Of a DNA stretch of 64,000 bases, positions 33-24,800 are shown in pieces. The DNA lies in NCBI GenBank assembly GCA_030018455.1, contig JASEFU010000002.1, positions 141,480 through 205,479 on the forward strand. Direction: 5' to 3'. Position numbers and translations under genes: made by a program. The stretch's first letter is position 1. Each line of letters starts with the position of its first letter. This stretch comes from Dehalococcoidia bacterium (lineage in GTDB: Bacteria; Chloroflexota; Dehalococcoidia; DSTF01; JALHUB01). The notes beneath the pieces are model-generated. The model worked only from the letters and a program-made list of their open reading frames with translations. It made no database searches and was not told the origin of the DNA.

Positions 33-374
33 ATGATGACGCGAATTCAGCGCGAAAAACGAACGGTCGGCGCGATGATCGATCTGTACTGCCGCGCCAA
101 CCACGGGGCATCGGACGGGCTCTGCGCAGAGTGCGCAAAACTCCGCGACTACGCCTTCGCTCGCCTCGACCGCTGCCCCTTCGGCGGCAAGAAGCCCACC
201 TGCGCCAAATGCCCGGTCCACTGCTACAAGCCGGACATGAGGGACGAGATCAAGCGTGTGATGCGCTTCGCCGGCCCGCGCATGCCAGGGCGCCACCCGC
301 TCCTGGCGCTGATGCACCAGCTCGATTCGCTGCGCGGCAATCGAAGCCGCCGAGAGCGCAGGTCGACCGGCTAG
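33..374 (+). CDS. Nitrous-oxide-stimulated-promoter (YgbA-like) family Cys-rich protein
   Basis: 113 aa; motif IDLYCRANHG...LCAECAKL...CPFGGKKPTCAKCPVHCY matches the YgbA/NO-stimulated family pattern. Confidence 0.6.
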   Translation: MMTRIQREKRTVGAMIDLYCRANHGASDGLCAECAKLRDYAFARLDRCPFGGKKPTCAKCPVHCYKPDMRDEIKRVMRFAGPRMPGRHPLLALMHQLDSLRGNRSRRERRSTG

Positions 375-685
375 CGGGCGGGGGAGGCCTTCTCCTCTTC
401 GCGGGAGGCGCGCCGCCAGGGCAGCAGCCCGAAAAGCAGCCTGAACGTCATCTGGACGGCGAAGACCATTACCGCCACGGGCAAGAAGAGTATGAACGCC
501 AGGCCGGCGATGGGCCCCAGCACCATCACAACCGCCAACGGAACCCGGTAGTAGACCGCGCCGTCGTCGGGGAGGTGACCGCCCCCCTCAGGGAGCTGGG
601 TCAGGTCCCATGCCCTCTTCTTCAGGTAAATGCCCTCAGGAGCGGGCTGCCCGCCGCTATAGGTCTTTATTAGCTTCCCCTTCAT
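371..685 (-). CDS. Small membrane protein, unknown function (last gene of long minus operon)
   Basis: 104 aa, one to two TM helices; GGGAGGGG SD 8 nt before ATG. Confidence 0.45.
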   Translation of the reverse strand: MKGKLIKTYSGGQPAPEGIYLKKRAWDLTQLPEGGGHLPDDGAVYYRVPLAVVMVLGPIAGLAFILFLPVAVMVFAVQMTFRLLFGLLPWRRASREEEKASPAR

Positions 686-913
686 CTCAGTTTCCCCTCC
701 CGGTCAAGCCGTGCTCTCGTCTTCTAACCGGATCCTACGGCGGGCCGGGCGAGACCAGGAAGAGTCGCCTGTCCGTCCGGAGAAATGCAAACGCCTCAAA
801 CGCGGCCAAAAAACGCCCTACTTGCATACGCCTTCTGCACAAGACTGGCGGGAGCAGCCAGACGCAAAGCGGTAGACGGTGGCAGTGTGTGGATTGGAGG
901 GAAGCCGGCGAAG

Positions 914-1582
914 CTAGCGGCCGATGTCCACGAGGCCCGCCCGGATCGCGAGCTTCACCAGCTCCGTGCGGTTGTGGACTTCCAGCTTCTCCATGATGCC
1001 GGCGCGGTGGTTGGCGACGGTCTTCGCGCTGAGAAAGAGTAGGCCGGCTATCTCGCGGTTGCTCCGCCCCTCGGCCAGGAGCTTGAGGACTTCCTTTTCG
1101 CGGCCGCTCAGCCGGTCGAGCCGCCGCTCCACCTCGTCGTCCTCGCCTTCCCTGAGGTAGCGGTCGATCACCGCTTTCGTGACCGAGGGGTGCAGGAACG
1201 ATTCGCCGGCGTGCACGGCGCGAATAGCGGAGACAAGCTCGCTGCCGGCGGCCTTCTTGACGATGTAGCCGGCGGCACCCGCCTTGAGCATCTGGAGGAC
1301 GTACTCCTTGTTATCGTACTGGGTGAGGACGATTACCTTCGCCGGCGACCGCCGCTGACGCAGCTCCAGCGCCGCCTCCAGACCGCCCAGCCGTGGCATC
1401 GCGATGTCCATGAGCACAACGTCGGGGGCGAGCTGTACGGCCTTCTCCACCGCCTCCACGCCGTCCGCGGCGTCGCCCACCACCTCCACGTCGTCGTGCG
1501 CGTCCAGCAGCGCCCGGATGCCGTCGCGGAGGACGGCGTGGTCATCCGCTATCAGGACCCGAATCTTGCGCATCGTCGTCAC
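914..1582 (-). CDS. Two-component response regulator, NarL/LuxR family
   Basis: Receiver domain (IADDH...VVLMDIAMP...KVIVLT) + LuxR HTH ([35 protein letters not shown]). Confidence 0.9.
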
Positions 1583-3521
1583 TCTCCCTTTCGATGGGAA
1601 CGACGGCCCGCACCCGCGTTCCCTTGCCCGGCCGCGAGACGATCTCGATGCTGCCGCCGAGGAGCGTCGCCCGCTCTTCCATCCCCATCAGTCCCCAGCC
1701 GGAGTGTTTTCCCGACGCTTCGCCTGTTGCCGCGACGTCGAAGCCCTCACCGTCGTCCTCCACTTCGAGCGCGACGCGGCTTTCGTCGAACGTGAGCGTC
1801 AGGGCGACCGCGGAAGCGCGGGCGTGGCGCGCGACGTTGTTGACCGCCTCCTGCCCGATGCGGAACAGGGCGGTCTCCGCCTCGGCGGGCAGCCGGCGCT
1901 CCTTCCCTTTCACCTGCAGGCGGACGCGCACGCCCGCCGGTTGCAGGCGGCTCTCGGCGTACCAACGGAGACCGGCCACCAGCCCCAGGTCGTCGAGAAC
2001 GGACGGGCGGAGGTCGTAGATCAGCCCGTGGACGCGCTCCAGCGTCTCCACCGCCAGTTCCTTGAGCGACGCCAGCCTTCGCTGCAGCCCGGCCGCGCCG
2101 CTCTCCGACGTCAGGGAGGCGGTCTCCAGCCCGACGGCGAGGGCAGTCAGGCTCTGGCTCGTCTCATCGTGGAGCTCGCGGGCGATGCGCCGGCGCTCTT
2201 CTTCCTGAGCGCCGATCACCTTCTTGAGCAGACGGCCGCGCGCCGCCTCTTTTCGCTTCAGCTCCTCGTACAGGGCGGCGTTCTCCTCGGCGACCGCCCG
2301 CAGGCTATCGCGCGACTCCTCCAGCTCGCGCGTGCGCTCCCGGACGCGCAATTCCAGCTCGCGGCTCTGCGCCTGTATCGTTTCCAGCGATTCGCTGAGC
2401 TTGATCCGCATCACCTCGAAGACCATCGCCAGGTGGCCGATCTCGTCCCGCCCCAGGATGGGCACGCGCCTCGAGAGGTCGCCGGACGCTATCCTCTGCG
2501 CGGCGTCCGTCAGGGCCGCCACCGGCCGTGTGACGCTGCGTACGGTTGCCCAGCCGAAGAGCAGCGCGAACGAGAAGGCGCCGACGCCCAGCCACAATGC
2601 CCGCTCCTTGAGCCGACGCGCGGGGGCCAGCGCCTCATCCTCCGACTCGCGGATGAGCACTCCCCACGGCGCTGACTGAAGAGGAGCGAACGCCATCACC
2701 TCCGTCTCGCGCTCTTTCCCGTTTTCGGACTCGTGGCAGTCGTGGCAGGTGCCCGACGACGTCCGGTTCTCCTCGATGAGCGCGGCCACCTGATGACGGT
2801 GGTCCGTCGTTTCGAGCGTCTGGTCGGCGCGGGTGCTGGCGAGGATCGCCCCCTCGCCGTCCACGATCTGCGCGTAGCCGGTCTCGCTCAGCGACGCGAG
2901 GTATATGACCTCCTGAAGGTTGCTGCCGCTGAGGCCGATGTCGCCGCCGACCAGTCCGACGAGCTTGCCGCTGAGGTTGCGCACCGGCACCACCATCGAG
3001 ACGGCGGGTCCCCCGTCAGCCACGGCGGCGGTCAGACCGGACACGGCGCTCGCCCCGCTTTCGAGGGCGTCCGCCACGTGAGGGTTGGTGGAGATGTCTT
3101 TCCCCAGCACGGACGGCGTTTCGGGCTCGATCCACAGGAGGCGGCCGCTCGCATCGGTGAGATAGACGCCGCGGCTGAAGATGGTGCCGAAGAAGGCGCG
3201 GCGCAGCGCCCGCCGCTCCGGCTCGGGGTCGGCGTCCTCGAGGTCGAACCCATCGCCGAACGGGACTTCGTCCAGCGCCTCCAGGCTCTGGCGCACGACG
3301 TAGTCGACGTGGCCGCCGGTCGCCTCGGCGAGGGCGCGGCGCTCGTCAACGGAGCGGTCGATGCTCTCCGAGACGGCGAGCAGGCTGATGATGCTGAAGG
3401 CGACGAGTATAGCGACGATGCCGATGGTCACCAGAAGCATGATGCGCCACTGGAGGCTTCTCCTGATGATCCCGGGTCGGCCGCCTCGAGGGGTCTTGTC
3501 GCCGTCGAGCCCCTGGCCCAT
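1542..3521 (-). CDS. Sensor histidine kinase (HisKA_3/HATPase) with periplasmic sensor domain carrying a CxxCH heme-c motif
   Basis: 659 aa: TM, ~230-aa periplasmic domain, CHDCH (aa 259-263, nt 2733-2747) as only Cys pair, 2nd TM, coiled coil, H-box [13 protein letters not shown], HATPase_c. Confidence 0.85.
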
Positions 3522-3534
3522 CGCGAGTCCCCCG

Positions 3535-4317
3535 CTACCCGCCCGGCGGCTTCTCCGCTGTGCCGCCCGCAGCGGGCTCCGACGACAGGTGCGCGGGGAG
3601 CTCCTTGATGCCCATCAGGCGCATGTACTCGCGCAGGTGCTCCTCGATCATCCTTTCGCGCGATATCTTGCCGTTGATCATCGACTGGTCGAGAGGAAAC
3701 ACGTTCGGGCTGAAGACCACGCTGTAGAAGTGCCAGATGACGATGACCAGGAAGGCGAGCAGGGCTTCGCCGCTGTGCGTCTCCTTTGCCGCGGCCACAA
3801 ACTCGCCGGGGAGCACGCGCGTGACGTAGGTGGGAAACCAGAGCATGAGGCCGGTGGCGATCATAATGACGGCCCCGAATACGATCCCCCAGTACTCGAA
3901 GATCTGCCGGAAGTCGTAGCGGTCGAACTCCGGCCGGCGGGAGCTGAGGCCGACGGAGTAGCGCAGCCAGTCGAACGCATCGAGGAAATCGCGGGGCGTC
4001 GGTATCATCGAGGGAGTGAAGCGCTTCAGAGCAACGGACGCCGCTATCGCTCCCAGGTGGAAGCTGGACTCGAAGATGAAGAGGGTGGCGAAGATACGGT
4101 GGAAGAGGCGGACGTTATCGATGCCGCCGAGCGCGGAAATGACCCACAACGAAGGGGCGGCCTCGTGGAACTTCTGGGGCAGGCCCGTCGTGACAAGAGC
4201 AAGGAACGTGAACACGAGCACCCAATGCTCAAGCCGCTGCCCCAGGGTGAAGCGGAGGAACTCCTCCGGTTCCGGAACCTCGCGTATGCCCTCTCTGTGC
4301 GCCTCTGCCTTTATCAT
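3535..4317 (-). CDS. Di-heme b-type cytochrome, Ni/Fe-hydrogenase/formate-dehydrogenase gamma (HydC/FdnI) family, split CbcL-like b subunit
   Basis: 260 aa, 4 [24 protein letters not shown] pattern; homologous to C-terminal half of 5430..7292. Confidence 0.8.
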
Positions 4318-4329
4318 CTCGGCGTCCCC

Positions 4330-5433
4330 CTATCGATTGCGGGCCAGCCGCCACAGATCGACCATGATATACAGGACCAGCCCGCCGACCATGAAAGGAA
4401 TGAGAAAGCGGTAGTACGTCTTGACGAGGTATACCAGGGTCGCCTTGTCTAAGCTGGGCTCGTAGTGCGACAGCCACGCGGAAGGGAAGTTGACGGTGGC
4501 ATCCGGGTGGCACTTGCGACACGTGGTCAGCAGGTTCTCCTTTATGACGCGCGACTCGGGATCGTCCACGGCCTTGATGTCGTGGACGCCGTGGCAGTCG
4601 CTGCACACGGGCTGGTCGGGCCAGACGTCCGTCCCCTCCTTCTGGTAAAAGCCGACAGTCTTGCCGTGGAAATCGTCGAGGTACGTCTTGAGGACGTTGG
4701 AGGAGATACCGTATTTGTCCATCAGCTCCTTGTCGGCGTGGCAGCCGGCGCAGAGATTGAGCGAATCGAGCCGGAAAGAGGCGGTCGTAGCGCTGGGTAT
4801 GTTGTGGACGCCGTGGCAGGTTGTGCACACGGGCACGTCGGGGTTTTCCTCACGTAGAGCGGAGCCGTGGATGCTGGAGCTGTACGCCTCGTAAATGCCT
4901 TCGTGACATTTTGAGCACGCCTGGGCGATCTGCGTCCGTGATTCGCGGATCGGCGTGGCCGCGTGGGCGGTGTGGCAGTCGGTGCAAAGCGGGGCGTAGG
5001 TGAAGCCCTTCGAAAGCGCCTCGAAGTGCACGCTATCGAGGGTCAGCGTGTAGTTCTTGAAGTGGCAGCGCTTGCACAGCTCGTACTGCGCCTGGGAGTA
5101 CTCCCGTCGCCCGGAGACCTCCGGCAACGGGTGAGGGTAGCGGCGGTTCCGCTCGTGGCAATCGAGGCAGTTCAGCTTGTCGCCGTGGACGGAGCTGCGA
5201 TAGGCCTCTTCATTGAACGTGAGTGAAAGAGCATCGCCGTTGGGGAACGTCATCGCGATCTCAGGCCGCAGGTGGCAGCGCAGGCACGACGCGTTCGGGT
5301 CCTGGGCCGGCGGCGAGGGCGGCGGCGCGGACTGCGCGACCGGGGCCGCGCGCAAGAAGACCAGGCCAAGGGAGGCGGCAGCGCATGCGCCCAACAGCAG
5401 CCGCGAGAGCGCGCCCCGTTTCCGTCTGTTCAT
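4330..5433 (-). CDS. Nonaheme c-type cytochrome, signal peptide, C-terminal TM anchor (split CbcL-like c subunit)
   Basis: 9 CxxCH motifs (CLRCH, CLDCH, CKRCH, CTDCH, CSKCH, CTTCH, CAGCH, CSDCH, CRKCH); start overlaps upstream stop (ATGA). Confidence 0.85.
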   Translation of the reverse strand: MNRRKRGALSRLLLGACAAASLGLVFLRAAPVAQSAPPPSPPAQDPNASCLRCHLRPEIAMTFPNGDALSLTFNEEAYRSSVHGDKLNCLDCHERNRRYPHPLPEVSGRREYSQAQYELCKRCHFKNYTLTLDSVHFEALSKGFTYAPLCTDCHTAHAATPIRESRTQIAQACSKCHEGIYEAYSSSIHGSALREENPDVPVCTTCHGVHNIPSATTASFRLDSLNLCAGCHADKELMDKYGISSNVLKTYLDDFHGKTVGFYQKEGTDVWPDQPVCSDCHGVHDIKAVDDPESRVIKENLLTTCRKCHPDATVNFPSAWLSHYEPSLDKATLVYLVKTYYRFLIPFMVGGLVLYIMVDLWRLARNR

Positions 5434-7292
5434 GACCCGCCTCCCGCCGGCCCGAAAGCGTCGCTTTCCGCTCCGCGGGCACGGGCCGCCTGGTCGCCGG
5501 AGGAAGCCGCCCGCCGCTTTGCCGCCTCATCGATGGCCGCCAGCTCCAGCGGGTGCTCCTCGGCGTAGAGGCGGCGCTGCATCTTGCCGGTGAAGATCGA
5601 CCGGTTCAGGGGGAAGAAACGCGGGTTGAAGTGGACGAAGAAGAAGTGCACAACGAATATCCACAGCACGGCCAGCACCGCCTCGTCGCTGTGGGCGAGG
5701 AAAGCCACCGAGATCATGTCGCCGGGAAGGAAGCGCGCGGCCATCGTCGGGAACATGAGCATCAGCCCGGAGAGGCCTATCACCGGCATCCCCCAGAAGA
5801 TCGCCCAATAGTCGAACTTTTCCCGGTAGCTGAAGCGCCCGAACTTCGGCCGCTCCGACGAATGGCCGAACCAGAACTGCAGGTCCTGGAAGAAATCGGC
5901 GATATCTTTGGGCGCGGGAATCATCCAGATGGGCAGCGGCTTCTTCAACACCAGCGAACCGAAGGCGACGTACCCCAGGTGGTAGACGCAGTCCGCCAGC
6001 ATCACCAGCCCGGCGAAACGGTGGATGGCGCGGGCGCTATCCAGCCCTCCCCACGCGTCGATGAGCCAGCGGCTCGCGCCCCACTCGGAGAACTTCTGCG
6101 GCAGGCCGGTGAAGGCGAGGACGAGGAAGCAGGCCATCATCAGGAAGTGCTGCGCCCGCTGATGGACCTCGAAGCGAAGGATTTCCTGCGAGGGATGGGC
6201 CGAATCGAGACCTTGCGCCCCGGCGGGCCGATTTCCCGCCGGGTCGCCGGATGCGCCTGAGAGCGCGACATGCCGGTGGCCGCCGGCACCTCCGCCGACG
6301 CCGGGCCCGCCGGACGAGGGGCCTCGTCCGTCGCCATCGCCGTGGCCGTCGCCGCCGCCGCCGCGCCCCGTCAGCCAGCCGAACCCCTCGAGCCCGACCA
6401 TCAGCAGCCCCAGGCCGACCACCGATGTGGTGAGGATGAAGAAGAAGCGCTCGCCGTAGTAGACAAGCGGCGACTCGTCGGCGGAAGGCTCCTGGTGATA
6501 AGCGAGGCTGCGCGCGAAGCTCTCGTTCGCGTCGGAGTGGCAGCGGGCGCAAACGATCGCCAGGGTCGCCGCGCTGCGCACGGGCGACGTCCTGTCGTCC
6601 ACCCTCTTCGCGTCATGGCTGCCGTGACAGGTAGCGCAGGTGGCGGGACTAAGGGCGGAGAGGTCGGCCCGCGAGAGGCGGAGCGCTTTGGCGTGGGGGC
6701 TGCCCATGTAGGTCTCGAACACGTCCGTCTTCAGCCCGTACCGCGCCATCAGCGCCTCGTCGGCGTGGCACTTTCCGCAGGTGGCGGCCACGTTTTTTCG
6801 GTACACGGGCGACTGGGCCGACAGGACGGGCTGAATTGCATGGCCGGATCCGCCAGGATTGTGGCAATCGAGGCAGGTGGCGACGTGGGCGTCGGAGTGG
6901 ACGCTCCTCGCCTGGAGCGCCTGCTCTTGCCGGTGGCAGCGGCCGCAAAGCTCGATCACCGCCTGCCCCTCGATGCGGCGGCCGGCGTCGTCCTCGTCGT
7001 GGGTGGAGTGGCAGCTCGCGCAGTCGACCCCCTCATGCACGGAGGAGGCGAGCGGCGCCTCGTCCACGTACAGGCGGCGGCCGGGGTCGCTCTCGCTCAC
7101 CGGCGGGTTGTCGGCGTTGCCGTGGCAGCCGAGGCAGCCGCTGAGGTCGACGGCGCTCTCGCTCTTCGGCGGCTCGCCGACCTGGCTCCTGCTGGCGTAG
7201 ACGACAACGCCTATGCCCGCGAGCACCGCGCAGGCGACCATGAGTCCGAGAAGGTACGCGAGCGGCTTTCCCACAGACACTTTTCCATCCAT
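5430..7292 (-). CDS. CbcL-like fusion: heptaheme c-type cytochrome + HydC/FdnI-type cytochrome b
   Basis: 620 aa; 7 CxxCH, TM, Gly/Asp-rich linker (GGGGDGHGDGDGRG...), then 4-TM b-type domain paralogous to 3535..4317. Confidence 0.85.
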   Translation of the reverse strand: MDGKVSVGKPLAYLLGLMVACAVLAGIGVVVYASRSQVGEPPKSESAVDLSGCLGCHGNADNPPVSESDPGRRLYVDEAPLASSVHEGVDCASCHSTHDEDDAGRRIEGQAVIELCGRCHRQEQALQARSVHSDAHVATCLDCHNPGGSGHAIQPVLSAQSPVYRKNVAATCGKCHADEALMARYGLKTDVFETYMGSPHAKALRLSRADLSALSPATCATCHGSHDAKRVDDRTSPVRSAATLAIVCARCHSDANESFARSLAYHQEPSADESPLVYYGERFFFILTTSVVGLGLLMVGLEGFGWLTGRGGGGDGHGDGDGRGPSSGGPGVGGGAGGHRHVALSGASGDPAGNRPAGAQGLDSAHPSQEILRFEVHQRAQHFLMMACFLVLAFTGLPQKFSEWGASRWLIDAWGGLDSARAIHRFAGLVMLADCVYHLGYVAFGSLVLKKPLPIWMIPAPKDIADFFQDLQFWFGHSSERPKFGRFSYREKFDYWAIFWGMPVIGLSGLMLMFPTMAARFLPGDMISVAFLAHSDEAVLAVLWIFVVHFFFVHFNPRFFPLNRSIFTGKMQRRLYAEEHPLELAAIDEAAKRRAASSGDQAARARGAESDAFGPAGGGS

Positions 7293-7295
7293 CCT

Positions 7296-7550
7296 CTAGC
7301 CGAATACCTCGTCGTAGAGCAGCAGCATGGCGGAGACGGCCACTACCGCTCCGAGCAGGAGGAGGAAGAGGTCGCGCAGCCCGGACAACACCCGCCATCC
7401 GGAGGCGAGGACGCCGCGGACGGTGCTGGCCTCGCTTTCGGGGCTGAGCCGGCGCACCAGGCCCGCCATCCCCGTCACGGCAAGGTATGCCCCCGCCAGC
7501 ATCACCGACCAGCAGGACAGGTACGATACGATGAAACGGGCCGCCTCCAA
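7296..7550 (-). CDS. Small 2-TM membrane protein
   Basis: 84 aa hydrophobic ORF in operon context. Confidence 0.35.
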   Translation of the reverse strand: MEAARFIVSYLSCWSVMLAGAYLAVTGMAGLVRRLSPESEASTVRGVLASGWRVLSGLRDLFLLLLGAVVAVSAMLLLYDEVFG

Positions 7551-7573
7551 CCGTCATCTCCCTTCCATTTGCC

Positions 7574-7816
7574 CTAGACAAGAGCCTGGGCAAGCACCAC
7601 TATCCCCTGCGTCACGAGGGCGAGACCGGCGCAAAGGAACGCCAGGCCGGGCACCAGCATGCGCGGGCTCCCGTTCCGTCCGAGGCGCGGCAGCCGCCCG
7701 CTCACGCGGACAGCGACGCCGGACAGCCGGGAAATGCCCAGGCCCACGAGTTGCAGGCCGACAGCAGCGGCCGTGCCATAGGCGAGCATCCGTAGCGGCG
7801 TCAGGAGGTCACTCAT
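7574..7816 (-). CDS. Small 2-TM membrane protein
   Basis: 80 aa hydrophobic ORF in operon context. Confidence 0.35.
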   Translation of the reverse strand: MSDLLTPLRMLAYGTAAAVGLQLVGLGISRLSGVAVRVSGRLPRLGRNGSPRMLVPGLAFLCAGLALVTQGIVVLAQALV

Positions 7817-8228
7817 GCCGCTCCCTCGAAAGCTCGCCGCGCTTGCCTGCGCCCGCCTCCCGAAGGGCGCGGAGCAGGTCTTCCACCTTCGCTACCTTCA
7901 TCTGGCTGTCCCTGTAAATATGAAGAAGGTTCTCCGCTGGGCAGAGGCGGACTACCGCGCCGCCCGGGTTGCAGTCGAAGATGGCGGACGCAGTGGCCAG
8001 CGATTGCGGTTCGTTGATTTCGCTGGCCAGGATCACGACATCGGGTCGCAGCGCAGCGATGCGCTCCATCCCCGCCTCGATATCGATCTCGGAGCCGACG
8101 ACGCGCAGCCCGCGCTGCCCCCGCAGCAGGGTCTCGACGCCGCGGGCGAGCAGGACGTGGCGGCTCAGGATGAAGATGCGCTGCGTTCTCATCGCACCCA
8201 TGCTAGACCGCATGCAGCGCCGCGCCAT
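7809..8228 (-). CDS. Degenerate (pseudo-)receiver domain protein; probable start at 8192 (MRTQRIFIL)
   Basis: RIFILSRHVLLARG...PDVVILASEINEP resembles receiver fold but DD pair and phospho-Asp replaced (S/R, A/S). Confidence 0.4.
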   Translation of the reverse strand: MARRCMRSSMGAMRTQRIFILSRHVLLARGVETLLRGQRGLRVVGSEIDIEAGMERIAALRPDVVILASEINEPQSLATASAIFDCNPGGAVVRLCPAENLLHIYRDSQMKVAKVEDLLRALREAGAGKRGELSRERHE

Positions 8229-8422
8229 CGTACCGGCGATTCAAATCAGAGGGTACTTACGGTCAGCCGGAGGAGCGGATTTCCTAGACGGACGTCTAGA
8301 CGATTAAACGCCGCGGCCATGGGTGGGATCGGCGTGTCTGTGGTGAGGCCCCGAGCCAGACGGAGCGGGCGACGGGACTCGGGCCCGCTTGCCGGCAGGC
8401 AGACCCGCGACCCTCCGCGGCC

Positions 8423-8890: not shown

Positions 8891-9146
8891 ACATCCGGCT
8901 TTGTGGGGGCGGACGACCCTGTGTCCGCCCCCACATCATCACCTGCCCCTGCGCCGATGCAAAGCATTCCAACAGCTTCGATCCGCCGAAGGATCTCCGC
9001 TGTGCTCCGCCATTGACCGCTCCGCGACTCGGGCAGCCAATCGGAACTGTAAGAAATCTCCTCCTTCCTGGTGTAACAGGCAGAGACAGAAACAGATCCA
9101 CTTCAGAAGGAGCAGCCCGTATGAGCGTCTCGAGACGAGCGCAGTA

Positions 9147-9722
9147 ATGCAGCACGCCATTCAGTCCCTCACCGATAACGAACTAGAACGCTTCACTGCG
9201 AGTGGCAGTCGTGATGCGTTCGGCGAGCTATACGAGCGCCACTGCGGGAGAGTATACGACTTCCTGCTCCCCATGGTCCGGGACGAGGACAGAGCGGCCG
9301 ACCTGACTCAGGAGACGTTCATGCGAGCTATGAAAGCCTTGTCGAAGGAACGGGCGGGACGAGCAGCCTTCTGCACTTGGTTGCTGACCATCGCCCGCAA
9401 CCGCGCCGTCAACGAAATCGATCTAGAGAAGCGGAGTGTTCCCCTGGTCGAGGAGGAGAGCGACGAGGGGGCGCCAGGGTTTCCATGTTGTGGACACGAA
9501 AGGGCTAGGGAATCCCGAGGAGGCAGCTGAAGCGACGGAGATGGCGGCGCCCGCGCGGGAGGCCGCAAAAGCGCTCGATCCAAGTATTCGCTGCTTGACC
9601 TCCACGTCCGCCAGGGCCTCGACAGCGCCGAGATTGCCGCTGTTCTTGGCGTGAGCAAAGGGAACGCCTACACGATGCTCAGCCGGCTCAAGGACGCCTT
9701 CGAGGAAGCCGTCGCCAGTCTG
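9147..9722 (+). pseudogene. ECF (sigma-70 family) sigma factor, interrupted by in-frame TGA (9528-9530) and probable frameshifts; no proper 3' end
   Basis: Region 2 (FGELYERHCGRVYDFLLPMVRDEDRAADLTQETFMRAMKAL...WLLTIARNRAVNEID) and region 4 (LLDLHVRQGLDSAEIAAVLGVSKGNAYTMLSRLKDAF) in same frame but separated by TGA; linker reads better in frame 1. Confidence 0.5.
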
Positions 9723-10274
9723 GTGATGTTTAGGCGGGGGCGCCGCTACTGCGCAGAGTTGCATCGCCTCACCAAGGAATACCGAGTTGAGGGCATCTCA
9801 GCCTCAGCCCGCAAGCTCATCGCGACACACCGGCGAATGCGCCGTCTGCCAGGAGCGGCGGCTACGGCTTGTTTCGGCCGAGAGTGTCCTGCGGTCGCTG
9901 GTTCCTCTGCCCCTCCTGCTCAAGAAGAGAACTGCCGAGACAGCGACCCAAGCGTGGCCTTTGGTCAGCGGCGGAGCGTCCGGAGCGAGTGGGGTCGGTG
10001 GCAGCTGGGTGCGGTTGTCTCGCAGTGGCGGCCTGGTACAATCGCAGAAGTACGTCCGCAACAACCTGCGCCAAATCCCCCTGTGCCGCCGGGAGCCCGT
10101 TCTGCACAATTCGACGTTCTGGGACCACGCTCCCGCATCGCGCGCCGCATGCATCGATGGCTTGTTACCAGCGCCGGGCCTGCAAGAGGAACGGTAGCTC
10201 GAAAAGCAGAGGGTCGGAGAGCTTTCAATACAAGAGGCCGGGTGAACCCCCGGCCTGACTGCGTCTACCGCATG

Positions 10275-10323
10275 TGGAGCGGGAAACGGGACTCGAACCC
10301 GCGACCCTCTGCTTGGGAAGCAG
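10275..10323 (-). repeat. Partial tRNA-Gly 3' half (positions 28-76), displaced att copy
   Basis: 49/49 identity to 3' part of tRNA at 12903-12951. Confidence 0.8.
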
Positions 10324-10337
10324 TGACTGTTGCGGGT

Positions 10338-10667
10338 TCATCCGGCGCGCTCGAGGGCGCGGGCGAGGCGGTCGTGAGGGCCTCGGGACCTAGCGGCGCG
10401 AACGGAGCGCTCGACGTAGGAGAGGGGGCGGCGGTCGGCCTTCGAGGGCCTCCCGGGCTTGCGGGGCTTGGCGGGGATCCCGCGGGTGATGACGCCGGCC
10501 TTGATGAGGGTGACGGCGCGGTGGAGGTTCTGCAGGGCGCGGTCGGCGTCGGGGGAGTTGAGGGCGCGATAGAACAGGCGCTGGAGCTGCTGGCTACGGC
10601 GCCCGTGCTTAAGGGCGTTGAGGTTTCCTCGGGGCGCGCCCGCGCCTGATCGTCTTCCTCCGCGCAT
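10338..10667 (-). CDS. Hypothetical protein of the element (GNLNALKHG motif), basic C-terminus
   Basis: Very high GC3 coding signal; upstream AT-richer leader; start ATG 10665-10667. Confidence 0.45.
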   Translation of the reverse strand: MRGGRRSGAGAPRGNLNALKHGRRSQQLQRLFYRALNSPDADRALQNLHRAVTLIKAGVITRGIPAKPRKPGRPSKADRRPLSYVERSVRAARSRGPHDRLARALERAG

Positions 10668-11467: not shown

Positions 11468-12346
11468 TCATTGTAGCAGGCGGCCCTGGGCGGCTGCGGG
11501 CCTTCGGGCGATGGGGCTGAAGCGGGCGTGCTGGGCGCGGACGTCGCGTAGGTCCATGTCGACGTATCGCTTCGTGGTGTCGATCTGGCGGTGGCCGAGG
11601 ATTCGTTGGAGGGAGAACACGTCGCCCCCGGCGGTGATGTAGAGGCGGGCGAAGGTGTGGCGTAGGAGGTGGGGGCCGCCGGGGATCCCCGCGCGCTTGA
11701 GGGACCGGCGGACGGCTTGGGAGACGCCTGAGGGGGTGAGGGGGCCTTTGCGCCCGGCCCAGAGGGTGGTTGCGTCTCCGAGGCCGACGAGGGCGGCGAG
11801 GACCTGCGGGCTGACGGGGATTTCGCGCATTCCGGTTTTGCCGGTGACGAGGGTAGCGGGGCCGAGGTGGGCGCGGGAGAGGGTGGCGACCTCGCCGATT
11901 CGGAGGCCGGTGTCGAGTAGGAGCAGCAGCAGGGCGCGGTCGCGGCGGGCTGCGGGGCCGGTGCGCGCTGCTGCGGTGGCGAGCAGGTGGTCGACCTGGT
12001 CGTCGGATAGGGCGCGGGGGAGTAGCTGGCGGCGCCGGGGCGGCGCGAGCTCGAGGGCGGGGTTCGGGACGCCGAGGCGTGCCGAGGCCCAGCGAAAAAA
12101 CGTGCGCCAGACGCGAAACACGTCGTGGCGGCTTTCGGGGGATAGTGGGAGTGCGGCGAGCGCGTTTTCGAGGGGCTCAGGGGCGCTAGGGAGCGCGTGG
12201 GAGGCGTTTTTGAGGGGACGGAGGGCCCAGAGGTAGGCCTGCAGGGTCTTGGGCGCGAGGTTGCGGGCCCTGCAGGAGGCGATGAAGGCGTTGACGGCTG
12301 CCTCTGTGGTCAGGGTTTCGGGCGGTGGCGCTGTTCTACGAGCCAT
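11468..12346 (-). CDS. Tyrosine recombinase/integrase (XerC/D-like)
   Basis: 292 aa; C-terminal RHTFARLYITAGGDVFSLQRILGHRQIDTTKRYVDM (R..H..R..Y catalytic signature). Confidence 0.9.
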   Translation of the reverse strand: MARRTAPPPETLTTEAAVNAFIASCRARNLAPKTLQAYLWALRPLKNASHALPSAPEPLENALAALPLSPESRHDVFRVWRTFFRWASARLGVPNPALELAPPRRRQLLPRALSDDQVDHLLATAAARTGPAARRDRALLLLLLDTGLRIGEVATLSRAHLGPATLVTGKTGMREIPVSPQVLAALVGLGDATTLWAGRKGPLTPSGVSQAVRRSLKRAGIPGGPHLLRHTFARLYITAGGDVFSLQRILGHRQIDTTKRYVDMDLRDVRAQHARFSPIARRPAAAQGRLLQ

Positions 12347-12789: not shown

Positions 12790-12902
12790 AGCTTAGCGTC
12801 AAGGGGGTAGTTGGGGAAGAGGCCCCGGCCGTCAAGTAGCTACACCTGGGGGCCGTACGTTGGCCTCTGCGGACTCGAGGCCTCTCCCGGCATTTTAGCA
12901 TG

Positions 12903-12978
12903 TGGAGCGGGAAACGGGACTCGAACCCGCGACCCTCTGCTTGGGAAGCAGATGCTCTGCCAACTGAGCTATTCCCGC
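12903..12978 (-). tRNA. tRNA-Gly (anticodon CCC)
   Basis: 76 nt cloverleaf: acceptor GCGGGAA/TTCCCGC, D-arm GCTC-AGTTGGCA-GAGC, anticodon loop TTCCCAA, T-arm GCGGG-TTCGAGT-CCCGT, discriminator T, CCA encoded. Confidence 0.85.
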
Positions 12979-22082: not shown

Positions 22083-24800
22083 TTAGTGCCTTCCGGGCCC
22101 CGGCGTCGTGATGGCTACAGGCGTCGGTGTCGGTGTCGCCGTCGATCGGGTCGTCACCGAGCGCGGAGTGGGCGTAGGCTTCTCCTCCTCGGCGACGACT
22201 TTGACCGTGACCATCGTGATAAGCTCGCCCCGCGCCCTGTCCTTGACCACCAGCCTGAGAACGTAGGTATCGGGCGCGAGGCCGCTCGTGTCCCATGCTC
22301 CCAGTGTCGTGTCTGAGAGGGGAGTGTTCGACTCGTGGATTACCGTCCACGATGACGGGGCGGCGCCCTGTCCGAATTCGAGACGGTACCATTCGAATTC
22401 GCCCGAGACCGCCCGTCCCGTTATCGTTACCGTGCCTGAGAGCTCCGCCCCTTCTGCGGGCGACATAATGGCGATGGGGATTTTGTCGGGGGTACTGATC
22501 TCCCTCGGCGGCGACGCGGCGCCCAGCTCCTTTGCCCATTCGAGGGCCCACTGTCTCTGGCCTTCGGGAAGATTATCCGGGATGACGAGGAACACCCGTT
22601 CCTGTATGAACTGCGGCGGAGTAGTCTCCCCTGCCAGCAGTCCGTTGCGGATATCGATCTTGACGGGGCGCCACCAGTCGTCCTTTTCCTTCGGCAGGCT
22701 GCTGGCGACGAAAAGGTCCTCGATGACCTTGCCGCAGTGCTCGCTGGGCAGTTTGCCGGAGGGGAAGCAGACCTTTGCCTTCACCACGCCTTCGGGCTTC
22801 TGGAAAGTAGACGCGGGCTGTCCCTCGAGGGCGGCTACCATAAAGTCGCGCAGGCTCCGCCACGAGATCGAGGTGCTGCTGATGTTCCACATGGGCGAGT
22901 TGTCGGCGTTGCCGGCCCAGACACCGACTACCAGTTCCGGCGTGTACCCCATGGCCCAGGTGTCGCCGATAGCGCGGCTGTTTTCGTAGGGCTCGCTTGT
23001 TCCGGTCTTGATGGCGGCCTGGCGTCCGGGGATACTGAGTCCGCCGCAGCCGAACGTCGCGCACTGGGCCTGCGGGTCGGAGAGTATGTCGGTTATCAAG
23101 TACGCGTATTCCGGCGGCACTACCGGCACGTCCACCCGCTCCTGATTGATGTCGAACAGCACCTCTCCCGAGGCGTCCACGACCTTCAGGATCGAGACCG
23201 GATCGATCTGCCTGCTCCCTTCCGGCAGGTCGAGCGCCGTCGCCACGCCGCGCATCACGCCGTTGTTCGCGAACACGGAATAGCCGTACACCATGTCCAC
23301 CAGCTTAACGTCGACGCCGCCGATGGTCAGAGACGGCCCGTAATGTCCTTCAAGCTCGGTCAGGCCCATCTTCCTGGCGGTCGCCACCACATCTTCGACG
23401 CCCGTGGCGAGGATCGTCTTGAAGGCGGGGACGTTCAACGAGTTCCCGAGCGCGTTGCGGATGCTGATCGGTCCCTTGAAGTCGCCGCTGGGGTTGCGAG
23501 GCGTGAACACGGAGCCGTCGGCCTCCGTCCAACTGATGGGAGTATCGAGTATGAGGGTGCCGGGGCCCCATCCCAGCTTCATGAACGAGGTTATGTAGGT
23601 AAACGGCTTGAGCGCAGAGCCCGGTGAGTTGAGAGCCTGCGCCATATCGTTGCGGCCCAGGATGTCGTCGCGGAAGTAGTCGCGGCTGCCCACGTAGACC
23701 AGTATTTCGCCCGTGCGGGGGTCCATCGCCACCAGGGCGCCGTTGTGGCCGCCGGAGCTCTCGAACGTCGTAATCCATTCCTCGAGTATTCCTTCCGCTT
23801 TCTTCTGGAGGTCGAGGTCGAGAGTTGTCGTGACTTCCAGTCCTCCGCGGTAGACCGCCTGGTGGCCGAACCTGGCCTCCAGCTCCGGCTGTATGTACGA
23901 CAGCACCCAGTGGGGTGCGTCGATGTCGAACCAGCGGGGGACGACCTCAAGCGGCGTGTTCACGGCTATCCAGCCCTCTTCGGGCGTGATCTTCCCTTTC
24001 TCCACCATGAGCAGCAGGACCTGGGTGCGCCGCGCGACCGCCGCCTCGGGGTTTTCCAGCGGGTTGTAGCAGCTCGGGCAGGCCGGTATGCCGGCGAGGA
24101 GCGCAGCCTCAGCGAGCGTAAGGTCTTTCGCCTTCTTGCCGAAGTAGCCCTCGGCGGCCGCTTCCACGCCGTTGTAGACGCTTCCATACGATATCTGGTT
24201 GAGGTACCACTCGAGTATCTGGTCTTTCGAGTAGCGGTTTGTCAGCTCCAGCGCGTATACGGTCTCCTTCAGCTTGCGGGAGATAGAGCGTTTCTGCCGG
24301 TCTTCCTCGGAGATGTAGATGTTCTTGACGAGTTGCTGCGTGATCGAGCTGCCACCGGTACCCTGGAGGAAACCGAGCTGGCCGGGGAAGAAGTTCTCGT
24401 AGGCGGCGCGTAGCAGACCCTTGATGTTGACGCCGGGGTTGGAGTAGAAGCTGGAGTCCTCCGTGGCGATCGTGGCGTCGATGAGGTAGGGGGAGACCTC
24501 CGAAAGCGGCACCGGACGCCGCAGCCCCGCGAGGTCGTCGACGAACTCATAGAGCAGACGGCCGTTGCGGTCGTATATCCTCGCGCCGCCCGACGACTGC
24601 TTCGCGAGCATCTCCTCCATCGGGAGGAGGTCGTTTGCGTAGACGCGGTAGATGATGAAACCGGCGGTGGCGACGGCCGCCGAGCCGATGGCGAACAGCC
24701 CCAAAAGGATGAGCGGAAGGAGGACCCAGAAGTTGAGCCTTTTCCTGTCCTTCCCGTTGCGGCTGCGCCAGCGGCGGCGGCGGTTGAAGAGTCTAGCCAT
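22083..24800 (-). CDS. Penicillin-binding protein 1A family (bifunctional transglycosylase/transpeptidase) with Pro/Thr-rich C-terminal extension
   Basis: GT51 motifs (EDSSFY, GSSITQQLVKN), transpeptidase SxxK/SxN/KTG. Confidence 0.9.
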   Translation of the reverse strand: MARLFNRRRRWRSRNGKDRKRLNFWVLLPLILLGLFAIGSAAVATAGFIIYRVYANDLLPMEEMLAKQSSGGARIYDRNGRLLYEFVDDLAGLRRPVPLSEVSPYLIDATIATEDSSFYSNPGVNIKGLLRAAYENFFPGQLGFLQGTGGSSITQQLVKNIYISEEDRQKRSISRKLKETVYALELTNRYSKDQILEWYLNQISYGSVYNGVEAAAEGYFGKKAKDLTLAEAALLAGIPACPSCYNPLENPEAAVARRTQVLLLMVEKGKITPEEGWIAVNTPLEVVPRWFDIDAPHWVLSYIQPELEARFGHQAVYRGGLEVTTTLDLDLQKKAEGILEEWITTFESSGGHNGALVAMDPRTGEILVYVGSRDYFRDDILGRNDMAQALNSPGSALKPFTYITSFMKLGWGPGTLILDTPISWTEADGSVFTPRNPSGDFKGPISIRNALGNSLNVPAFKTILATGVEDVVATARKMGLTELEGHYGPSLTIGGVDVKLVDMVYGYSVFANNGVMRGVATALDLPEGSRQIDPVSILKVVDASGEVLFDINQERVDVPVVPPEYAYLITDILSDPQAQCATFGCGGLSIPGRQAAIKTGTSEPYENSRAIGDTWAMGYTPELVVGVWAGNADNSPMWNISSTSISWRSLRDFMVAALEGQPASTFQKPEGVVKAKVCFPSGKLPSEHCGKVIEDLFVASSLPKEKDDWWRPVKIDIRNGLLAGETTPPQFIQERVFLVIPDNLPEGQRQWALEWAKELGAASPPREISTPDKIPIAIMSPAEGAELSGTVTITGRAVSGEFEWYRLEFGQGAAPSSWTVIHESNTPLSDTTLGAWDTSGLAPDTYVLRLVVKDRARGELITMVTVKVVAEEEKPTPTPRSVTTRSTATPTPTPVAITTPGPGRH

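Follow-up and report, generated by a model that had tools for sequence, protein, structure and literature searches.

Why would a bacterium keep two multihaem cytochrome modules together with a sensor histidine kinase in a single operon? The question is raised by a minus-strand gene cluster in the metagenome-assembled genome of a Dehalococcoidia (Chloroflexota) bacterium (assembly GCA_030018455.1), located at positions 8228 to 371 of a 64,000-nt stretch of contig JASEFU010000002.1; this stretch as a whole is called the window. A sequence-only reading had described the cluster as duplicated modules resembling the Geobacter quinol oxidoreductase CbcL, under a dedicated two-component system. Our analysis revealed that this gene set belongs to a cassette of wide distribution, and a literature search, with subscription journals outside its coverage, found no published description of this cassette or of a dCache domain with a CXXCH haem motif. 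The nearest known counterparts are CbcL in architecture, the E. coli pair TorC–TorS as a cytochrome that communicates with a kinase, and the sCache_haem sensors as Cache domains with haem c. The gene content is best explained as a single operon that combines two conserved units: Unit A (8228–5430), with a CbcL-like fusion protein, and Unit B (5433–371), with a nonahaem cytochrome c, a free-standing cytochrome b, the kinase and its regulator. We put at about even chances the proposal that the cytochrome pair of Unit B works in contact with the kinase, which would report the redox poise or electron flux of the quinone-linked haem chain and thereby control the CbcL-like oxidoreductase.

Linkage of cytochrome b and sensor kinase across phyla

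A profile built from the free-standing cytochrome b and 21 relatives was used to scan one genome per species and matched at least 506 genomes; the best 80 loci were kept, their open reading frames (ORFs) were called, and the products were compared with the window proteins. In essentially all of these 80 loci, a cytochrome with 9–13 haems is positioned directly upstream of the b gene. A kinase of the same type lies on the same strand in 43 of the 51 loci with enough flanking sequence, its start mostly within about 200 nt of the b stop codon, and most of the other loci have a divergent or opposite-strand kinase close by. The recurring gene order is nonahaem c, cytochrome b, dCache-HAMP-HisKA_3 kinase, NarL-type regulator and, usually, a small membrane protein. 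Nitrospirota, including Thermodesulfovibrionales (~32 loci), Chloroflexota (~24) and Acidobacteriota (~8) contribute most of the set, and further hosts were found in Tectomicrobia, Dadabacteria, Methylomirabilota, Nitrospinota, Binatia, Myxococcota, Ignavibacteriales and deltaproteobacterial metagenome-assembled genomes (MAGs).

In addition, the b subunit and the kinase are joined in a single polypeptide in some lineages. Around close homologues, the order is a c::b fusion gene (and a 158-aa gene), nonahaem c, a 928-aa b::kinase protein composed of Ni_hydr_CYTB, dCache, HAMP, HisKA_3 and HATPase domains, the regulator and a protein of ~105 aa. Proteins of this b::dCache-HAMP-HisKA_3-HATPase layout, 895–929 aa long, form about 32 clusters at 90% identity in NCBI, JGI, ENA and Logan assemblies. 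In a neighbour-joining tree, the Chloroflexi members make up a single clade, to which the split b of the window is sister, and an independent fusion, confirmed by Pfam, occurs in one deltaproteobacterial MAG (locus L044). The topology of the fused form is coherent, the cytoplasmic C-terminus of the FdnI-type domain leading into the first transmembrane (TM) segment of the kinase. The earlier description of modules with their own sensor and regulator understated the link: in many phyla the second pair goes together with the kinase, and in relatives its b subunit is fused to it. The separation of the two genes in the window was also considered as a frameshift artefact and rejected, as split forms of the same length occur in relatives (94%, 75–79% and 98% identical proteins) and an RBS-like GGGGGA precedes the kinase ATG. 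One cassette on a contig labelled Sphingomonadaceae (L017, JBLNDL010000005.1) is 55% identical to the Chloroflexi type and may reflect either mis-binning or horizontal transfer.

The kinase itself belongs to the dCache HisKA_3/NarL class and has a cognate REC-GerE regulator. Its AlphaFold2 (AF2) model has a predicted local distance difference test (pLDDT) score of 73.8, with values of 80–94 over most of the sensor domain, and displays a double Cache fold matching the dCache ligand-binding domains of PctA, PctB and CtaA (Foldseek TMt 0.70–0.77), together with a DesK-like core. The sensor carries a haem motif, CHDCH, at residues 259–263, which the model places in the beta3-beta4 region of the membrane-proximal Cache module, from the end of beta3 into the next loop, a part modelled with low confidence. 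The motif falls in one alignment column in 48 of the 67 kinases from the related loci; an exhaustive search seeded with the sensor domain yielded 202 representatives (E ≤ 1e-30), and CXXCH is present in 106 of the best 150. Residues D240, H260 and R291 are co-conserved only in the sequences that bear CXXCH. Based on this motif, the Cache domain is predicted to bind a c-type haem covalently.

A haem-c Cache family, DUF3365 (Tll0287; sCache_haem), has recently been described, for example in Geobacter GSU0582, and is reported to be rare or absent in Chloroflexota (PMC12889525). Similar to the kinase of the window, its members sense through an extracytoplasmic domain of Cache fold that bears a motif for covalent c-haem and is joined to signalling modules, but they contain a single Cache with CXXCH on an inserted helix, whereas the window sensor is a dCache_1 double module, and Pfam gave no match of it to PF11845 (DUF3365) at E ≤ 0.01. 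The NarX and NarQ models align only to the kinase core (residues 441–647, 96–98 bits against cut-offs above 550), and the sensor is not of the periplasmic four-helix P-box type. The haem-motif sensor also occurs in kinases of other contexts: on one contig of GCA_030691665.1 (L089, genes at 121–7378), a 952-aa kinase with the same CXXCH-bearing dCache plus GAF domains is encoded behind the genes of three small multihaem cytochromes and of an NHL-repeat protein, and cytochrome b is missing. Sensors with the haem motif thus extend beyond the c/b cassette.

Two cytochrome c/b modules

Both b domains of the operon are FdnI-type four-helix bundles with four bis-His ligand positions. When the b profile was compared with the PDB, FdnI of E. 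coli formate dehydrogenase-N was the only solved relative (E 5e-17), no CbcL-like structure being present there, and its haem ligands H18, H57, H155 and H169 align to the invariant H31, H73, H181 and H196 of the free b, for which the same alignment gives four TM segments. As in FdnI (PDB 1kqf chain C), whose partner FdnH is held by a C-terminal TM helix, the partner of the window b is anchored in this way; it is, however, a multihaem cytochrome c rather than an FeS/Mo enzyme, and the b family has a fifth invariant histidine, H87, as an extra one in TM2. It had been proposed that grouping of the b domains with formate dehydrogenase gamma subunits, or of the c proteins with the NrfB/NapC type, would undo the assignment as quinol:cytochrome modules, and neither was observed. 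The NCBIfam FdnI models gave 48–54 bits against cut-offs of 116–341 (TIGR01583, 115.85), and in essentially all 80 loci the gene next to b encodes a multihaem cytochrome, not a formate dehydrogenase. For the c proteins, NrfB models gave 22–32 bits against 166–184, NrfH 20 bits against 134, and the best curated model, the DmsE-family decahaem cytochrome, 43–48 bits against 192. With all of these models far under their cut-offs, the cytochromes are neither formate dehydrogenase subunits nor Nrf/Nap cytochromes.

The 620-aa protein of Unit A is 100% identical to the NCBI entry 'cytochrome c3 family protein [Dehalococcoidia bacterium]', which lies on a 360-kb contig. It has seven CXXCH motifs within residues 53–252, a Ni_hydr_CYTB domain at 375–559 (Pfam) and six TM segments (13–31, 283–301 and four in 380–547), so ordered that an N-terminal anchor is followed by the heptahaem c domain, a TM segment, a Gly-rich cytoplasmic linker and the 4-TM b domain. 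Its AF2 model (pLDDT 78.7) has FdnI (1kqf_C) as the top Foldseek match (TMt 0.79). CbcL of Geobacter sulfurreducens (GSU0274) joins a c domain of nine haems to a dihaem b domain in one polypeptide, with six TM helices, five candidate ligand histidines and no other cofactor subunits, and acts as a low-potential menaquinol oxidase (bioRxiv 10.1101/2021.04.15.440034; 10.1101/2022.08.31.506072; PMC9129911). The 620-aa protein shares this layout as claimed by the earlier reading, namely an N-terminal multihaem c followed by an FdnI/HydC-type b, six TM segments, five conserved candidate ligand histidines, and no FeS, flavin or Mo partner. It differs from CbcL in having seven haems instead of nine and a long Gly-rich linker, and in its context, the gene lying after a pseudo-receiver and two small membrane proteins and before the kinase-linked cassette, whereas cbcL is reported to be constitutively expressed. 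Chloroflexota hosts are also commonly regarded as single-membraned, unlike the host of CbcL. At the architecture level the likeness to CbcL is firm. The CbcL sequence was compared as two fragments machine-read from an alignment in a paper supplement: they put its b domain after residue ~340, and one matches the 620-aa protein collinearly at residues 454–502 (49 aa, 41% identity; E 2e-5 when 10 sequences were searched), which is weak sequence evidence.

The split pair of Unit B invites comparison with Geobacter CbcBA, in which a multihaem c with a C-terminal TM anchor and a separate 4-TM dihaem b are likewise encoded in a regulated operon; CbcB, however, is reported to have no sequence homology to the b domain of CbcL and to contribute only three ligand histidines, the fourth coming from CbcA (bioRxiv 10.1101/2021.04.15.440034). 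In contrast, the window b supplies the full set of four FdnI ligands, and no histidine occurs in the C-terminal TM segment of the nonahaem c (residues 343–361), so the pair is not split in the CbcBA manner. The gene order also differs (c then b in the window, b then c in CbcBA), as does the regulator, a sigma-54 type in Geobacter and a HisKA_3/NarL pair in the window.

The two modules are collinear: the c domain and anchor of the fusion protein are 27% identical to the nonahaem c, and its b domain is 42% identical to the free b. When 113 b domains were placed in a neighbour-joining tree, the two b types fell into separate clades, each spanning several phyla. The modules are thus old paralogues rather than the duplicates suggested previously, and a recent tandem duplication is ruled out by the tree together with the 42% and 27% identities. 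The supposition that the arrangement is unusual outside Desulfuromonadales is not supported, and c::b fusions are not rare: besides the relatives of the free b in at least 506 species genomes, a search for multihaem c::b fusions gave 2514 matches, and a second, fusion-type c/b pair is present in 19 of the 80 loci, usually directly upstream. The fusion matches, mostly 19-haem forms of ~930 aa, span Kiritimatiellota, Bacteroidota, Calditrichota, Ignavibacteria, Elusimicrobia, Omnitrophica and others, and haem counts of 7, 9, 11, 13, 19, 21 or 23 were observed among related fusions.

Gene order, regulatory DNA and genomic surroundings

Nine co-directional ORFs extend from 8228 down to 371 (Table 1), each with coding-like GC3 of 0.81–0.90. 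The genes listed by the sequence-only reading are present on the minus strand at the positions given there, and Pfam and NCBIfam upheld every domain assignment, although nine genes rather than eight were counted. Their packing is tight, but the overlaps of 4–40 nt first described apply to only three junctions (8, 4 and 41 nt); at four others the genes are 3–23 nt apart, and a gap of 228 nt precedes the last gene.

Table 1. Features of the operon, its surroundings and related loci (window positions, unless a related locus is named)
Feature	Position	Strand	Evidence
Stand-alone pseudo-receiver, 139 aa, NarL-like REC without DNA-binding domain	7809-8228	-	NCBIfam NarL REC, E 2e-7
Small membrane protein, 80 aa, two TM segments	7574-7816	-	TM prediction; no Pfam family
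Small membrane protein, 84 aa, two TM segments	7296-7550	-	TM prediction
Heptahaem cytochrome c::FdnI-type dihaem cytochrome b fusion, 620 aa	5430-7292	-	Pfam, NCBIfam
Nonahaem cytochrome c, 367 aa, signal sequence and C-terminal TM anchor	4330-5433	-	9 CXXCH
Free-standing FdnI-type dihaem cytochrome b, 260 aa	3535-4317	-	Pfam Ni_hydr_CYTB, E 1e-14
Sensor histidine kinase, 659 aa: TM, extracytoplasmic dCache_1, TM, HAMP, HisKA_3, HATPase	1542-3521	-	Pfam
NarL/LuxR-type response regulator	914-1582	-	Pfam Response_reg, E 1e-27; GerE, E 8e-21
Conserved 228-nt spacer, candidate promoter region	686-913	-	Aligned spacers of relatives
Small membrane protein, 104 aa	371-685	-	No Pfam family; homologues aligned
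YgbA_NO gene, convergent with the operon	33-374	+	Pfam, E 7e-43
Palindrome, candidate operator, 5' of the first gene	about 8283-8300	-	Sequence
Integrase	11468-12346	-	
tRNA-Gly(CCC)	12903-12978	-	
Hexahaem cytochrome after the small membrane protein	L001 16419-17114; L008 4092-4787; L009 11231-11926; L010 13882-14580; others		
158-aa protein	L002 8818-9294; L005 12123-12599; L006 2496-2972		

In Unit A, alignment of the pseudo-receiver with the true regulator revealed that the acidic pair DD is replaced by SR and the phospho-acceptor Asp by Ala; its true start may be an internal Met. Homologues of the pseudo-receiver are positioned 5' of c/b pairs in L001, L012, L014, L015 and L018, a homologue of the 80-aa protein (51% identity) has the same position in L001, and homologues of the 84-aa protein lie directly 5' of the fusion gene in L001 and L005–L007. 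Because homologues occupy the same positions in related contigs, these small ORFs did not arise by chance. At the other end of the operon, the 41-nt overlap of the regulator and kinase genes is kept in relatives (-37 to -40 nt), and the 104-aa membrane protein, which carries the motif GP..GLAFI.FLP, comes after the regulator in most of them; 26 homologues from Chloroflexota, Nitrospirota, Acidobacteriota and Dadabacteria loci were aligned.

The 228-nt spacer length is kept in most Chloroflexi relatives (the equivalent spacers of nine Chloroflexi loci were aligned). The spacer also preserves two direct repeats of the form TAGGGCGnTTT about 21 nt apart, TAGGGCGTTTT at 810–820 and TGAGGCGTTTG at about 788–798, followed by a -10-like TAGGAT, and the exact direct repeat has a single occurrence in the 64 kb. 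These repeats may represent a regulator-dependent promoter of the last gene. The palindrome 5' of the first gene, TCTAGAC-N4-GTCTAGG, whose arms recur in L012, where the spacer between them differs, and in part in L001, is similarly a candidate operator or regulator site. Consensus scans of the operon region found no promoter-like site and no excess of terminator-like sites.

Variations in gene content were observed around the cassette. Behind the small membrane protein gene, Chloroflexi relatives encode a hexahaem cytochrome of 231 aa and, in many cases, an NHL-repeat protein close by; the window lacks both and has YgbA there instead. A conserved 158-aa protein without a Pfam family is encoded between the fusion and nonahaem genes in relatives and is likewise absent from the window, as are the System I cytochrome c maturation genes CcmE, CcmF and CcmH that lie a few kb from the cluster in L005 (1203–4192). 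No other multihaem ORF was found in the 64-kb window, and the next 25 kb contain housekeeping genes. Exact-protein look-ups of YgbA and of the NCBI copy of the fusion protein, meant to extend the contig to the left, returned no record.

To the right of the operon, a perfect 54-nt direct repeat of the tRNA-Gly 3' half (10270–10323 and 12898–12951) brackets a 2.6-kb stretch with a tyrosine recombinase, which is a small integrated element with att sites. A third, decayed tRNA-Gly 3' fragment is located at about 8362–8418, ~135 nt 5' of the first operon gene, and points to an older, degraded island at 8.4–10.3 kb. Horizontal acquisition of the operon on a tRNA-Gly island was considered and ruled out: the att-like repeats bracket only DNA to the right of the operon, which is outside both islands. 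An ECF-type sigma factor (8901–9530 and 9651–10649, both plus strand) retains a single region in frame, region 2 (Sigma70_r2, E 6e-15), with the remainder apparently in another frame, and is probably a pseudogene inside the decayed island; the coding signal is poor from 8.2 to 10.3 kb. Elsewhere in the window, a class A penicillin-binding protein with Transgly and Transpeptidase domains (22083–24800, minus strand) indicates that this Dehalococcoidia host presumably makes peptidoglycan; Dehalococcoides, by contrast, is not known to do so.

Proposed coupling of the cytochromes to the kinase

Since b::kinase fusions, adjacency across phyla and a redox-cofactor motif in the sensor coincide, we read the c/b pair of Unit B as acting in contact with the kinase. 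Unit A would form a CbcL-type membrane oxidoreductase, in which the two b haems of the FdnI-like four-helix bundle would connect the (mena)quinone pool with the c-haem chain at the outer face of the cytoplasmic membrane; this 620-aa protein is the likely bulk conduit under kinase control. In Unit B, the helix-anchored nonahaem c and the free b would physically contact the kinase whose membrane-proximal Cache module bears the c-haem motif, and the pair may pass a redox signal to the kinase, either in addition to carrying respiratory current or in place of it. In equilibrium both with the quinone pool and, on its other side, with electron acceptors or donors outside the cytoplasm, the pair would determine either the Cache haem's redox state or the conformation adopted by the kinase membrane helices, and the kinase would in turn set the phosphorylation of the NarL-type regulator. 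The regulator would act at the direct repeats before the small membrane protein gene and probably also at the operon promoter, so that expression of the CbcL-like conduit would be matched to acceptor availability; the conservation of the spacer and its repeats is consistent with such a role. A known system offers a partial parallel: TorC, an anchored respiratory pentahaem cytochrome of E. coli, binds the periplasmic sensor domain of the kinase TorS, which controls TorC's own operon (PMC11727998). TorC is of the NapC/NirT type, however, TorS has neither haem nor Cache, the signal is trimethylamine N-oxide (TMAO) sensed via TorT, and neither a cytochrome b nor a known gene fusion is involved.

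Several observations weigh against physical coupling, and some of them would be expected if the operon simply encoded two parallel CbcL-type quinol:cytochrome c oxidoreductases, both carrying bulk current, for example at different potentials like ImcH, CbcL and CbcBA, with the two-component system as a mere transcriptional regulator that senses an independent ligand. Operons with their own two-component system are common, so synteny alone is no proof of contact, and in some Chloroflexi the order is permuted to kinase, regulator, small protein, c and b, resembling a regulator followed by its target operon. In the window, b and kinase are separate genes, and the fusion argument applies to them by homology. 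Among the 67 linked kinases, 13 have no CXXCH segment and are linked to c/b pairs nonetheless, including the independent fusion in L044; the Cache haem therefore cannot be the whole coupling mechanism. The haem-motif sensor domain also occurs without a c/b pair, on one short contig without a visible cytochrome and on another with three multihaem cytochromes and no b. A sensor, moreover, would hardly seem to require nine to thirteen haems. In each module the c-anchor-b architecture is complete and no haem ligand is missing, as would be expected of two working oxidoreductases, and Geobacter runs several such modules at different potentials, with cbcBA in a regulated operon (bioRxiv 10.1101/2021.04.15.440034). 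Two purely respiratory modules would nevertheless leave unexplained the b::kinase fusion in about 32 clusters and one independent case, the near-invariant adjacency of b and kinase across phyla, and the conserved c-haem motif in the sensor. In addition, a b subunit covalently tied to a kinase would be made at kinase-level abundance, which would limit it as a respiratory subunit and argues for a sensing role in the lineages that have the fusion. On balance, we regard two bulk-current modules as rather unlikely.

A further possibility is a response to NO or nitrite, in which the haem-Cache kinase would be a gas sensor like the NO-binding sCache_haem proteins and the cytochromes would detoxify or respire N-oxides, in keeping with the neighbouring YgbA gene. 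The gene is indeed adjacent on the other strand, but this adjacency is conserved in none of 87 related loci, and a functional link between the operon and YgbA or NO was rejected on that ground. Although DUF3365 signalling domains with haem c bind NO (PMC12889525) and the HisKA_3/NarL-type output is as in NarXL, the sensor matches dCache_1 rather than DUF3365, its haem motif is in the proximal module of a double Cache domain, the NarX/NarQ resemblance is confined to the kinase core, and no N-oxide reductase is encoded within 30 kb; N-oxide sensing consequently appears improbable. Electrons could also flow inward, from extracytoplasmic donors through the c haems to menaquinone at the cytoplasmic face of the FdnI-type b, as in formate dehydrogenase-N, forming an electron-uptake redox loop, and coupling to the kinase could still hold in that case. 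FdnI, the closest solved relative, works in this direction, and the cassette is found in lineages not known as metal reducers, namely Nitrospirota (including the MAG of a Mn oxidiser), Nitrospinota and Methylomirabilota. No donor-oxidising enzyme is encoded nearby, however, and CbcL, the characterised protein with the same domain layout, is a menaquinol oxidase (bioRxiv 10.1101/2022.08.31.506072), which leaves only a slim chance for inward flow in our estimation.

The proposal that the cytochromes of Unit B inform the kinase also bears on annotation, as b subunits of this kind are now named "formate dehydrogenase gamma subunit" and the fused kinases "HAMP domain-containing protein", both of which hide the likely function. 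Little is known, even for Geobacter, of how bacteria sense extracellular or insoluble acceptors and change from one membrane quinol oxidase to another, and a cassette that ties a CbcL-like cytochrome pair to a haem-motif kinase in at least 506 species genomes of at least eight phyla provides a testable candidate for such a sensor. We tentatively suggest, at somewhat less than even chances, that the cassette represents an undescribed class of two-component sensor, in which an FdnI-type b and an anchored 9–13-haem c are integral inputs of a dCache kinase with its own c-type haem, the b being fused to the kinase in some lineages. If so, electron flow between the quinone pool and the exterior would be read directly as phosphorylation, the haem-c Cache domain would have had a second, independent origin, and cofactor-bearing Cache domains would extend from the single-Cache DUF3365 family to the much larger dCache class.

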